Positions 47,019 through 50,916 of a stretch of 64,000 bases of DNA are shown one piece after another (the first letter of the stretch is position 1; the number at the start of each line of letters is the position of its first letter). Source of the DNA: Endomicrobiales bacterium. GTDB taxonomy: Bacteria; Elusimicrobiota; Endomicrobiia; Endomicrobiales; CAWCFT01. Location of the stretch: contig CAWCFT010000002.1 in NCBI GenBank assembly GCA_963794945.1, forward strand, positions 32,001 through 96,000, written 5' to 3'. Position numbers and translations under genes: made by a program. Under the pieces are notes generated by a model that saw nothing but the letters and a program-made list of their open reading frames with translations, had not been told where the DNA came from and did no database searches.

Positions 47019-48125
47019 ATGCTTAAATCTTTTAAGGTGGAAAATTTCAAATGTTTTAAAAATCTTGCGCTTGATGATTTTAGTCGTTTTAATATTATTG
47101 TGGGGAAAAATGCTGCGGGCAAAACTACTTTGCTCGAAGCGATCAAGATAATGCTTGATGGAGCTCCAGGATCTCTACCCTGGCTGAATAGTTTTCGCAA
47201 TATTCCCATTTTTATTCCACAAAATCCTACAGCAGAACAATTCCGGCAACAATTTACCGGATTCTTTCACGGATTCCACCATGAGATACCAATAAAAATG
47301 CATACCGTGGACTTCAACAACAGAAATGCGGCATTATCTATTTATTTTGACCCTAAGAAAGCTATTAGCATTCAGCCGAAAATTGGTTTTCAACAGTCAG
47401 CATCAGTTCCACAGCCAGACACATCATCGGTTTCACCGACAACAGTGGTGCCATTAGCATTTGATAGAATGGATTTTGAAGGTCATAGGGATATACCTCT
47501 TATCACTATCCAACCTGGCGGTCAAGTATTCTATCAACAAGGAAAATCAATGGGAATTTCTTCTGGTTTTATAACAGGCACATATATTGGATATCCCTCT
47601 GAAAATGCTACTTGGCTATCAACATTGAGCGTGCAAAAACGCAGCAAAGATGTCATAGAGGCATTACGTCAACATTTTTCATTTATAGAAAATGTAACGG
47701 TAGAAGCACCGTTTCAAGGACTCCCTCCACTTGTATACGCTGATATAAAAAATATTCCCGAGAAACTACCACTGTTTGCAGTTTCAGCAGGAATTAGCAG
47801 AATTTTTACGTTTATAGTAGCAGTAGTTACGTATGGCAAAGGAGTTTTACTAATAGATGAAATTGAAAATGGAATTTTTAACGATCAATATCAGCTTGTT
47901 TGGAAAAGCTTAATTGACCTCGCCCGGCAAAATAACACTCAATTATTTGTTAGTACGCATAGTAATGAATGTTTGCGAGCCATACTTCCCATAATGAAGG
48001 ACAACGAGGATGATTTTACGTTTCTTCGCGCTGAACATCAAAACGGAAATTCAAGTATTTCCCGATTTGACGGAAAGGAGATGGAAGCAGCTTTAGCCAA
48101 TGGAGCAGAGATACGATCGGCTTAG
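47019..48125 (+). CDS. ABC-type ATPase (AAA_15/AAA_21, AbiEii/OLD/AriA-like)
   Basis: 'FKVENFKCF', Walker A 'GKNAAGKT', signature 'VSAG', Walker B 'LLIDEIENG', 'STHS'. Confidence 0.85.
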   Translation: MLKSFKVENFKCFKNLALDDFSRFNIIVGKNAAGKTTLLEAIKIMLDGAPGSLPWLNSFRNIPIFIPQNPTAEQFRQQFTGFFHGFHHEIPIKMHTVDFNNRNAALSIYFDPKKAISIQPKIGFQQSASVPQPDTSSVSPTTVVPLAFDRMDFEGHRDIPLITIQPGGQVFYQQGKSMGISSGFITGTYIGYPSENATWLSTLSVQKRSKDVIEALRQHFSFIENVTVEAPFQGLPPLVYADIKNIPEKLPLFAVSAGISRIFTFIVAVVTYGKGVLLIDEIENGIFNDQYQLVWKSLIDLARQNNTQLFVSTHSNECLRAILPIMKDNEDDFTFLRAEHQNGNSSISRFDGKEMEAALANGAEIRSA

Positions 48126-48137
48126 AGGTGTGTAATA

Positions 48138-48791
48138 ATGGACAATTTTGAGTTTACTAAATCACACTTTTTAATGTGCGAAGGCGATGACGATAAGGGA
48201 TTTCTGGAGACTCTCATTAAAGAGCGTGGCTTACCTGATTTCCAAGTTTGTCATGCAGCGGAATGTAATGATAAAAATACGGGGGGAAGACCTGGTTTTG
48301 AACATTCTCTTGCCGGTTTCTCGATCATTAAAGGTTTCGCATATGTAAAAGCAATACTTATTGTTTCGGATAATGACACGCCTGCTTCATTCAACGAAGT
48401 CTGTAGTGCACTGACTAATAATAACTATACTGCACCAAGCACACCTAATTCAGTTGGATCAATTAAAACAAAACCAGTGGCAATTCTTATGATTCCACGT
48501 AATAAGAATGGAGATTTAGAAACGCTGTGTCTTCCGTCAATTCATGAAAAGTGGCCAAAGTCATCAGAATGCGTCACGTCCTTTCTTAGATGTACAGGAG
48601 CCGATCAGTGGCAAAAATCTTCTAGTGTTAATAAGGCTCGCGCAAGAGCTGCGACAGTCGGATTCAATGAAGAAGACCCATTTAGAGGAATAGGCCATCT
48701 GTTCAGGCGCGGCACGCTTTCTAGTAAAAATGCCTGCTTTGATGAAGTTGCAGAATTTCTCAAAAATTTCGATAAAATGTGTAATATATAG
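48138..48791 (+). CDS. TOPRIM-fold protein (DUF3226-like)
   Basis: 'LMCEGDDD' (TOPRIM Glu), 'VSDND' (DxD), 'GDLETLC'; 12 nt after the ATPase. Confidence 0.7.
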   Translation: MDNFEFTKSHFLMCEGDDDKGFLETLIKERGLPDFQVCHAAECNDKNTGGRPGFEHSLAGFSIIKGFAYVKAILIVSDNDTPASFNEVCSALTNNNYTAPSTPNSVGSIKTKPVAILMIPRNKNGDLETLCLPSIHEKWPKSSECVTSFLRCTGADQWQKSSSVNKARARAATVGFNEEDPFRGIGHLFRRGTLSSKNACFDEVAEFLKNFDKMCNI

Positions 48792-48939
48792 TTTATAAAT
48801 CCCACAGAAAAACCTATTTATAAATACCTTCTAAGATATATTTTATATTCACAACGCATAAATAAACAGAAAATGTTGTTCAGTGTTCTGTAACTAAACA
48901 AATGGTGTCACCTATGAAAGAAAAAGTCAAGGTGACAAA

Positions 48940-49150
48940 AAGTATCTCCGCAGTAGTTTCTAACTACTGATCTGTTCTGTTAAACAAGTTCTTTGGCCGT
49001 TCGCCCGCTTTGTATCGTAAGAAGCTCCGAAAATATCCGGACTTCAGTCACCTATTGGCAGCTCTGCACTTGGCGGACTGCATGATAGAATCGGGCGACG
49101 CCCCTCCGCTAATCAGACTTGTTGAAGCTGTCAGCCTTGCGGCGGACACT
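48940..49150 (-). ncRNA. Candidate bridge/seek RNA in the 3' non-coding end of the IS1111-type element
   Basis: Several hairpins (GCC-GCAA-GGC; GAAGTCCGGA/TTCGGAGCTTC; CAGTAGTT/AACTACTG) plus segments matching the reconstructed target (CAAGTCTGA) and donor (ATAGGTGA). Boundaries approximate. Confidence 0.65.
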
Positions 49151-50177
49151 TCAGGCACCATTGAGCGCGAGGGACGCCGTAGTCCGTATATAATATGGCC
49201 GCTTATCTTTCAAAACTCGATACACAATTTTCAATAAATCTCTGGCAAGAGCCACTCGCGCCACGTTGGGCGCTTTCCGTTTGGCTATAGCTTCATACTT
49301 TTCTGTTCGTTCAACGCTGCTCTTTGAAAAATGGTGAACTGCCTCAATCAATATCCACTGTAGGTGTTTACGCCGATTCTTATTTAAAGAACCGTGATAT
49401 TCTTTGTCGGCGCTCTGGAATGTTCTCGGTGCAAGGCCTGCGTACGCGCAGAGGCGGTTAAATGTTGTAAAACGGCTAATATCGCCTATCTCGCTTTTAA
49501 TAAGCAATGCACTAAAACTGCCGATCCCAGGAATACTTTCAAGATTCCGTGCGTCGGGATCACTTTCGGCTATTGCATGTAGTTGCCACCCGATACGGTT
49601 TTCACGCGCATTCAAAGCGCCTATTTGCTCAATCCAGTTTTCTGCGGCAATCCGGCACGGTTCAGATAATTTGTTCACCGCAATACCGTTCAATTGCTTC
49701 ATTGAAGTATAGTCACCCGTTGACATCTGTCCATGGCGATCAAGAAGTGACTTTAACCGTGCTGTGTTCCGCGTTCGTTCACTGACAATGCTCATCCGGC
49801 AATGCAACAGTTCTTTAATAGCTCGTATCTTCTTGTCTGGCAGCTCTACTGTAGGTAAATAGCCCTTACGGAGCACATCGGCTATAAGCCGGGCATCTAT
49901 CTTGTTCTGTTTTCTTGTTTCGTTTTGCAAATGCTTTCAGCTCGTACGAATTCGCAAGATACACCTTGTAAGCATATTCTTCGGCGAGATCAACGAAATA
50001 GTACCAATTGTAAGTCGTTTCAACTGCAAGTGTAAATGGTCGTGGGAGCGTTTTATAATATGATCGCAACACTTCTGGCAAATTTGCTATACTCTGGCTG
50101 TCAATCCGTTTGCCCTGCTCGTTCGTCACGTAAAACCAAGAACGCTCTTTGTGCAAGTCTACACCAACATAATTCAT
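49151..50177 (-). CDS. IS110-family DEDD transposase/recombinase, one +1 frameshift near 49905
   Basis: 'YVGVDLHK', 'AVETTYNW', 'KKT(D)KIDA' restored by removing one base, 'IPGIG...EIGDISRF...YAGL.P...QS', 'VALAR.L'. Confidence 0.92.
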
Positions 50178-50436
50178 GGCAACCTCCTCGTTTTGTCTTA
50201 TTGCTCGATACAATAAGTTTAACAAAACTAGATGGAGGTTGCTTTCATATTATCAGGCTTGACTTATTGAACTAAAAAGATTTTGACAAAATCTATAAAT
50301 TGACTCAATGAATAAAAACAGCGGCGATCCTGACTAAGTGATTTAAAGGACGTAAAGGATAATAGTTAGTGAAGCCGAGACAGCATTTTATAATGTCTAT
50401 AAATGAATGGTTTGATTCCGTAATCTCAAGGATACA

Positions 50437-50916
50437 ATGTTTAACTCAATTAAAAGCATCATGGGTTTTTTGGCTGGTGTTGCTATAACAGTAGGATTGT
50501 TGACTAGCCGCCACCTTATCCCGGGAGGTATCGGGTACGGCGCCGGTTACTTGTTAATGCCGTTTCAGATCATTTTTCTGATCATAGGCGGGCTGATAGT
50601 ACTGTCGGCTACATTATGGGCAGCCGGAAAATTGCTCAACGGCGCGGTTACCTGGAAAGAACCGCGCGTCATTATAGCGGCCCTTTCAATCGCGTTCATT
50701 GCGAACGCCCTCTTTATCGCCCTGGTTGATCTGTTCGCCTTAAAAAGCGGGCCGAGGTCATTGATAGCCTTGCTTGGGGTGCCGGTCATTTACGGCAACC
50801 TTTCAGCTGTCCTTTGTAAAACAAGCCTTAAAACCGCCATGCTCAACATCTTCGCCGGCGCGCTTGCCACGATGGGCGCAGGTTTCATTATAACCGCGAT
50901 TATTCGCGGCTGGTAG
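50437..50916 (+). CDS. Hypothetical multi-TM membrane protein
   Basis: About 5 hydrophobic helices; AAGGA RBS. Confidence 0.7.
   Translation: MFNSIKSIMGFLAGVAITVGLLTSRHLIPGGIGYGAGYLLMPFQIIFLIIGGLIVLSATLWAAGKLLNGAVTWKEPRVIIAALSIAFIANALFIALVDLFALKSGPRSLIALLGVPVIYGNLSAVLCKTSLKTAMLNIFAGALATMGAGFIITAIIRGW

Follow-up and report, generated by a model that had tools for sequence, protein, structure and literature searches.

A probable bridge RNA with IS1111-type guide order in an IS110-family insertion sequence of an Endomicrobiales bacterium

Does an insertion sequence in the genome of an Endomicrobiales bacterium carry its own guide RNA, and how are the guides of that RNA arranged? The window analysed is a 64,000-nucleotide stretch of contig CAWCFT010000002.1 (assembly GCA_963794945.1, positions 32,001 to 96,000), in which an IS110-family insertion sequence of approximately 1.35 kb, with IS1111-type organisation, occupies positions 48909-50255 on the minus strand. 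The original prediction had placed a bridge-type guide RNA, with matches to both target and donor, in the non-coding 3' end of this element. Structure and guide covariation across 31 homologues bear this out, and the region is very probably the gene for the bridge RNA (seekRNA) of this element. The layout of the guides is another matter, and it is from the relatives that it can be read.

About 45 loci (numbered with the prefix L) with transposases 50-92% identical to that of the element were compared, 31 of them with distinct RNA regions. A scan of a genome collection with a single protein pattern yielded four loci, in Candidatus Scalindua assemblies and one gammaproteobacterial assembly, and a same-phylum sample of 401 genomes added three further genomes with relatives; the source of most relatives was a metagenome scan, from which 80 loci were kept. 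Exact duplicates (L038, L044 and L051) and loci whose contig stops before the RNA region were left out. The left junction was recognised in each locus as TG-AT(A/T)(A/G)TAT and the right junction as a TTGAC-like pentamer exactly 20 nucleotides (nt) before TG, found in 28 of the 35 parsed loci; in the remaining seven the contig mostly stops before the right end.

The covariance check that the original prediction had proposed for homologues was run, and it shows that the target guides co-vary with the insertion sites and suggests the same for the left donor guide and the right end. As predicted, CAAGTCTGA (49121-49113) agrees with the window's left flank and core, CAAGCC-TG-A (50261-50253), at eight of nine positions; with the left flank of L004, another copy in the same genome, the agreement is nine of nine. 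This left target guide sits directly 5' of the 3' strand of helix P2 and changes with the flanking DNA from locus to locus. Over 24 distinct guide/flank combinations, 108 of 144 positions form Watson-Crick matches against a permuted mean of 75.4, or 127 of 144 against 106.0 when wobble is admitted, and none of 20,000 permutations reaches the observed score. The combinations include GAGGTT with AAGGTC, TGGAGT with GGGAGT, and AGGCTC with AGGCTC.

The right target guide lies upstream, at the 5' strand of the target loop, and shares bases with the final two sense codons ahead of the stop codon TGA (49153-49151). Here GGTGCC pairs with G-ACACC, and in L033 the same guide pairs with G-GCGCC through one U.G wobble; most relatives combine GGGGTC with G-ACCCC, and L050 combines GGTGTC with G-ACACC. 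Watson-Crick pairs fill 51 of 65 positions against a permuted 45.2, a score reached by 214 of 20,000 permutations. The site occupied by L004, CAAGTC-TG-GTACC, pairs with both target guides at all but the last left-guide base, with one G.T wobble. Since the right guide GGTGCC stands 5' of the left guide CAAGTCTGA, the order of the target segments is that of IS1111 elements.

This order is the reverse of the one first proposed, which followed IS621: a left guide, a stem or hairpin and a 3-nt right guide in each loop (GTG for the target, TTA for the donor), around a TGA core. This element and its 92% identical relative L021 do have a GTG on the 3' side of the left target guide, and it could pair with CAC of the right flank. 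That GTG (49068-49066) lies in the loop of HP3, which does not track the right flank: a right-flank complement is found there in 5 of 25 loci, two of which are this element and its 92% relative, whereas the complement of the three bases after TGA occurs at the 5' strand of the target loop in 19 of 25. By chance a 240-nt stretch should hold any one trinucleotide about four times, and 3-nt right guides therefore carry no weight alone. The internal stem TTAGCGGA/TCCGCCAA, which the IS621-like layout needs between its target guides, is paired in 48.3% of cells, a share within the span of its slid controls (24-65%), and its arms belong to the strongly supported P2 and HP3. On the donor side 22 of 31 sequences have TTA after HP4, and the donor opens with TG-ATAA; as a right donor guide, however, TTA fails in the relatives. 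The order published for IS1111-type elements, in the portion of Siddiquee et al. (2024, PMC11187229) that deals with it, is also the reverse of this layout. There is thus hardly any credence left for the IS621-like arrangement, and the IS1111-type order, with right guides 5' of the hairpins and left guides 3' of them, is the one adopted below.

The donor module repeats this order. Its left guide was correctly identified at the outset: ATAGGTGA (49055-49048) matches the element's right end, CATAGG-TG-A (48916-48908), at eight of eight positions. In a 240-nt end an exact 8-mer match has an estimated chance probability of about 0.004, and a 9-mer with at most one mismatch about 0.025, so that both left matches were unlikely to be accidental even before relatives were considered. 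In relatives the left donor guide switches with the right end between ATAGG, ATGGG, ATTGG and ATGAG; 27 of 30 positions are Watson-Crick matches and 30 of 30 match with wobble, against a permuted 23.3, although only six combinations are available and 488 of 20,000 permutations do as well. On the 5' side of HP3, UAUCA is kept in 31 of 31 sequences and is likely the right donor guide, judging from its complementarity to the left end. In this element UAUCA alone pairs; relatives carry ..ATTATCA at this place, complementary to a left end TG-ATAAT.., and the complementarity is longer in L010 (ATATTATCA with TGATAATAT). L033 (ATACTATCA with TGATAGTAT) provides one compensatory case.

The junctions also define the core. 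TG is followed by A at the left junction but by G at the right one in three independent junction pairs, those of L004, L011 and L033. It is preceded by the target's base on the left and by a G from the donor on the right. The sequence common to both junctions, and hence the core, is therefore TG and not the TGA first proposed.

The fold of the RNA is as informative as its guides. RNAalifold applied to the 31 sequences gives five helices (Table 1), in which 94.6% of 1362 cells hold standard pairs, compared with 33.0-48.5% when the 3' partners are slid by one to three columns. Compensatory changes on both sides occur in 33 of 44 pairs, and none of 500 shuffles reaches any of five measures. Helix P2 (13 pairs, 98.5% of cells paired, 10 compensatory) joins coding bases to non-coding ones. 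HP1 (10 pairs, 95.1%, 7 compensatory) is the GCAA-capped hairpin noticed at the start, and HP4 (7 pairs, 93.5%, 5 compensatory) is the equally real and conserved hairpin GAAGTCCGGA/TTCGGAGCTTC; HP3 has 9 pairs, 95.7% of cells paired and 6 compensatory changes. Roughly the last 36 nt of the transposase reading frame belong to the RNA, whose start is 37 nt upstream of the limit first set at 49150. Folding of the single sequence reproduces P2, HP1, HP3 and HP4 with z = -2.37, and 2 of 200 shuffles are as stable. G.U pairs are frequent, for example U.G at pair 48/71 in 23 of 31 sequences, which places the structure on the transposase-sense strand, as these pairs would be A.C on the opposite one.

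Table 1. Features of the element and of its predicted RNA, in window coordinates
Feature	Position	Strand	Remarks
Insertion sequence, one copy, ~1.35 kb	48909..50255	-	Core TG at both ends (50255-50254, 48910-48909)
Left subterminal inverted repeat TATGAAAG	50242..50249	-	Direct reading; partner CTTTCATA at 48920-48913
Transposase gene, DEDD/RuvC-like domain + Transposase_20	49151..50177	-	Frameshifted in the window copy
Bridge/seek RNA (predicted), ~190 nt	48996..49187	-	Covariance model R1, 152.2 bits (the element itself is in the model)
Helix P1	~49185-49181 with ~49001-48997	-	Outer helix, RNAalifold
Helix P2, 5' strand	49164..49177	-	Last transposase codons; pairs with 49110-49098; closes the target-binding loop
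Right target guide GGTGCC (predicted)	49154..49159	-	Directly 5' of HP1; complementary to core G + right flank, top strand
Hairpin HP1, GCAA-capped	49124..49152	-	Distal stem of the target-binding loop
Left target guide CAAGUCUGA (predicted)	49113..49121	-	Same sense as the top strand (left flank + TG + one base); the bottom strand is its pairing partner
Helix P2, 3' strand AGCGGAGGGGCGU	49098..49110	-	P2 pairing supported in the alignment
Candidate right donor guide UCUAUCA	49083..49089	-	UAUCA (49087-49083) complementary to top strand TG + ATA, left end
Hairpin HP3	49058..49081	-	Distal stem of the donor-binding region
Left donor guide AUAGGUGA (predicted)	49048..49055	-	Same sense as the element's right end CATAGG-TG-A
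Hairpin HP4, GAAGUCCGGA...UUCGGAGCUUC	49021..49045	-	Conserved in the alignment
3' tail	49002..49020	-	UUACGAUA at 49020-49013; CGGGCG at 49007-49002
TTGACT, -35-like hexamer	48925..48930	-	20 nt before the right core TG, direct reading

Two further pairings may involve the 3' tail. Its UUACGAUA contains an invariant GAUA able to pair with UAUC of the right donor guide, a helix that is paired in 77.6% of cells but is invariant and shows no covariation. CGGGCG can pair with CGCCCG (49097-49092), by reading rather than by formal count, and L032, L045, L049 and L033 offer analogues of this pairing. The UUAnGAUA tail that follows HP4 (49020-49011) is a mimic of the top strand of the donor's right half.

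The covariance model, R1, has 190 positions and 48 pairs. In the element's own genome it finds exactly five matches, one per element copy and none as a solo copy, and it also recovers loci outside the model (L035, L055, L008, L014 and the truncated L017). L008 has a peculiar RNA region: at L008:2244-2400 the left target guide and the P2 3' strand were lost in a deletion bounded by two GCTTCC(C)GAG repeats, and extra sequence is inserted before HP3, yet the R1 score is still 99.6 bits, so that the locus resembles a natural guide-less variant. Rfam, searched over 48700-50500 with E up to 10, gives no RNA match and two chance-level matches outside the RNA. R1 was also run on L015, L046 and 41 loci with 29-36% identical transposases, where it gives one weak match (L064, 24 bits, E 2.7e-4); several of these loci lie on short contigs that may have lost the 3' end, so this is no proof of absence. 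At the sensitivity of these tools, the RNA is specific to this clade.

The protein beside the RNA belongs to the expected family. The transposase has the Pfam domains PF01548 (DEDD_Tnp_IS110) and PF02371 (Transposase_20) and scores 221.8 bits against NCBIfam NF033542, 'IS110 family RNA-guided transposase' (cut-off 140). Residues D7, E53, D91, D94 and S255 are invariant in an alignment of eight relatives, and D7, E53, D91 and D94 align with the transposases of ISEc11 and IS4321, to both of which identity is about 22%. Matches to solved structures are weak (ISCro4, 63.5 bits; IS621, 52.7 bits). The motif GLAPRTFQSA aligns with GLVPKQTGSG of ISEc11 and GLVPRQYSTG of IS4321 and ends in A where the IS1111 motif GL-P----S(T)G has G; an SG ending is found in the relatives L010 and L039 (L039 from a reading of the DNA). 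The left end measures 76 nt (50253-50178) and the right non-coding end about 240 nt (49150-48911), and the subterminal inverted repeats TATGAAAG/CTTTCATA are perfect over 8 bp, with imperfect equivalents in relatives (by reading, with no formal count). Insertion is site-specific: the five copies of the genome and more than 20 relatives lie in related sites, with only TG common to both junctions. The 8-bp subterminal repeats, the 76-nt left end, the ~240-nt right end, the 341-amino-acid enzyme and the guide order together give the element the organisation of the IS1111 group.

Is this family still mobile? The RNA and its guides could be fossils of a decayed family that no longer moves in this genome, a reading to which the transposase genes lend some colour. 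One extra base near 49905 breaks the frame in the window copy; L002 has the same break and L004 a different one, so that three of the five copies are frameshifted, and the breaks fall at no fewer than two positions. Genuine decay and errors of the draft assembly are indistinguishable here as the origin of these frameshifts. With 85.9% completeness and 19 contigs the genome is a draft, and some of them may be sequencing errors. Against decay, the two copies L003 and L005 encode an intact 341-amino-acid protein with all catalytic residues, and the five copies, which have exactly the same span and different flanks, are 98.7-100% identical, their RNA regions being identical even where the gene is frameshifted. 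In addition, the extra base at 49905 is missing from DNA contigs of runs X1 and X4, which come from other samples, and the element is found in such contigs at a further site. A relic is accordingly most improbable. As its RNA is the same as that of the other four copies, the frameshifted window copy could be mobilised in trans.

The reading of the region as a bridge RNA gene has to be set against several observations that weigh against it. The transposase gene of the window copy is broken. P1 is weak in this element, with two of five pairs by reading. The right target guide places a C opposite A beside the core in four of the five sites of its own genome, and in L045 and L049 it fits the right flank poorly; the right donor guide shows no significant covariation (57 of 70 against 55.8), both partners varying little. 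The loci are mutually related, and the permutation p-values are therefore generous and overstate independence. R1, at E up to 1, finds nothing in ISEc11 (L110), IS4321 (L111) or the Ensifer plasmid loci, so homology to the tested seekRNAs is not established. A sigma-70-like promoter scan of the element returns two sites where 2.4 are expected, none of them near the RNA. One 194-nt contig from a metatranscriptome run is identical to 48920-49112, but it gives neither ends nor strand and may be DNA carry-over, which makes it only a hint of expression. The same run has no contig across most of the transposase reading frame, and the four runs compared, all of them as contigs, list no circle junctions; neither absence counts as evidence. 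Production of the RNA, its processing and its binding by the protein are predicted by analogy.

Much of this would suit a different view, in which the 3' end is only a DNA or messenger RNA element (subterminal sites bound by the transposase, a 3' stabiliser or a terminator) and the guide matches are by-products. Expression and protein binding of the RNA in this organism are predictions, the left donor guide could be simply an internal repeat of the right end, and the right donor guide is without significant covariation. A hairpin (48969-48951) also follows the region, and relatives have stronger terminator-like hairpins there; a terminator scan of the element gives counts at chance level. A DNA-site or terminator role would not lead one to expect, however, a left target guide that fits the host sequence beyond the element and varies along with that sequence in the 24 combinations described above. 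Nor does it fit with compensatory changes in P2 that link coding to non-coding bases, or with frequent strand-specific G.U pairs, and the enzyme family is experimentally RNA-guided in the systems covered by the relevant parts of PMC11208160 and PMC11187229. The purely DNA- or messenger-based explanation is thus very unlikely, and the bridge RNA remains the favoured one.

These elements suggest how the bridge RNA would work. The RNA, of about 190 nt, would fold so that P2, made of the last transposase codons and the non-coding end, closes a target-binding loop whose 5' strand presents the right target guide GGUGCC and whose 3' strand, after HP1, presents the left target guide CAAGUCUGA. The donor module would follow in the same order, with the right donor guide ..UAUCA, HP3 and the left donor guide AUAGGUGA, and would read the element's own ends across TG. 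By analogy with IS621 and ISEc11, the 341-amino-acid DEDD/serine recombinase from intact copies would bind this RNA. Likewise by analogy, the element would excise as a circle whose joined ends provide the donor site CATAGG-TG-ATAATATG as well as a promoter, TTGACT-N17-TAATAT; the RNA would then bridge donor to target, and the enzyme would exchange strands at TG. In a circularised element TTGACT would fall 17 nt from TAATAT (50252-50247), a predicted junction promoter. Such promoters are described for ISEc11 and ISEc21 in the available part of PMC11187229, where no other promoter is reported for ISEc11 and its short RNA is taken to derive from a longer form (Siddiquee et al.).

A comparison with the known systems, as far as the consulted portions of the 2024 papers describe them, places the element close to the IS1111 seekRNAs. 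Like ISEc11, ISPa11, ISKpn4 and ISPst6 (Siddiquee et al. 2024, PMC11187229), it has the RNA in a non-coding region downstream of the transposase gene. The subterminal inverted repeats are another shared feature (7-17 bp in the group), as are a transposase of 330-350 amino acids (341 here) with the GL-P----S motif, ending here in SA and not SG or TG, and a junction promoter on circularisation, predicted here likewise. ISEc11, ISPa11 and ISKpn4 also share with it the order of the target segments: the top-strand complement comes first, on the 5' side, and the bottom-strand complement follows. The module of P2 and HP1 spans 80 nt (49177-49098), near the 82-96 nt of short seekRNAs, and the full R1 model of about 190 nt compares with the 154-nt long seekRNA of ISEc11. 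Unlike ISEc11 and IS4321, whose loci R1 misses, the element has a transposase only about 22% identical to theirs; unlike the IS1111 seekRNAs as there described, the RNA predicted here has its right target guide, and the 5' strand of the stem that closes the loop, within the reading frame. ISCARN28, ISAzs32 and ISPa11, for which Durrant et al. (2024, PMC11208160) predict right-end bridge RNAs, share with it a short left end, a long right end and longer subterminal repeats, and the loops of those RNAs are complementary to target, donor and core as they are here, a comparison made through the figure legends. On the features listed above, the element has the organisation by which both 2024 papers define the IS1111 group.

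IS621 (Durrant et al. 2024, PMC11208160; Hiraizumi et al. 2024, PMC11208158) provides the second point of reference, again as covered by the portions of those papers at hand. IS621 relies, as the system predicted here would, on one RNA with a target and a donor module, each with a left guide to the bottom strand and a right guide to the top strand that overlap a 2-nt core. Both have the composite active site of DEDD and serine residues (D, E, D, D and S are all present here), both tolerate G.T wobble to DNA and both have a REP or REP-like target. The differences are equally clear. The RNA lies in the right end here and in the left end of IS621; the guide order is reversed in each loop, the left guide being 5' in IS621 (PMC11208160); the core is TG here and CT there. 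The right target guide here pairs with the second core base only, the closing stem of the target loop reaches into coding sequence, and HP4 and the conserved UUAnGAUA tail are additions after the donor module.

The preferred target of the element is a REP-like repeat, ..AAGCCTG|ACACC. The pattern AAGCCTGACACC is found unoccupied five times in the genome, against zero and two for the control pattern, and always inside a longer repeat. IS621 is reportedly directed to REP sequences as well, to go by the title of a 2003 paper by Choi et al. The same preference links the element to ISPa11, which targets REP-type repeats according to the part of PMC11187229 that treats it. On another contig of the same genome (L107:1499-2479), as at 50256-50285 in the window, the target lies in such a repeat (..ttagttcaataagtNAAGCCTGACACC), and two inverted 35-nt copies of the repeat, 94% complementary, flank a gene for a 294-amino-acid Y1_Tnp protein (IS200-like, RAYT-like). 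In L022, a 74% identical relative, an unoccupied target GTCAAGTCTGACACC is found about 30 nt upstream of the left junction (L022:290-345), with targets in tandem; the right flank of L010 (L010:2220-2270) has three tandem GACCCCTTTGA-like units, and the target there appears to be a short repeat.

Beyond the right flank of the element, on the plus strand, lie a gene for an AAA_15/AAA_21 ATPase (47019-48125; PADLOC AbiLi, 163.7 bits) and one for a DUF3226 protein (48138-48791) with weak PDC-M38B matches. Together they are a candidate AbiL-type anti-phage pair.

How new is the system? The original prediction had called it uncharacterised, which seems justified for the clade: there is no Rfam match, R1 misses ISEc11 and IS4321, and a literature search found no paper combining 'Scalindua' and 'IS110'. 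The kind of system is known, however. The class was described in 2024, and the element is apparently an ordinary example from an apparently uncatalogued clade; Durrant et al. (2024) analysed 274 ISfinder entries, and thousands of orthologues are already in published covariation analyses, by the sections of these papers available.

A bolder proposal is that the RNA is more than a re-ordered IS621 bridge RNA: a multi-branched molecule whose target loop is closed by transposase codons and whose invariant UUAnGAUA strand acts as a switch or as a fifth guide. Until donor DNA binds, this strand could keep the right donor guide covered, as a switch that controls excision or insertion; alternatively, it could be a fifth guide, reading the bottom strand of the right donor. 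The proposal is rather unlikely as a whole. If true, retargeting the right guide would change the C-terminus of the transposase.

That the RNA can be reprogrammed, as first suggested, is plausible by analogy with its relatives in the family. Reprogramming the obvious same-sense match alone would fail, because IS1111-type elements have their right guides upstream of the hairpins, and this one has them partly within its reading frame; with GGTGCC as the right guide, a change confined to CAAGTCTGA would still leave a mismatch at the right target guide. The favoured reading would add to the family a compact natural bridge recombinase of 341 amino acids with an RNA of about 190 nt. Its four guide positions, TG core and REP-like target would be readable from sequence comparison alone, and more than 30 relatives would come with naturally different guides.

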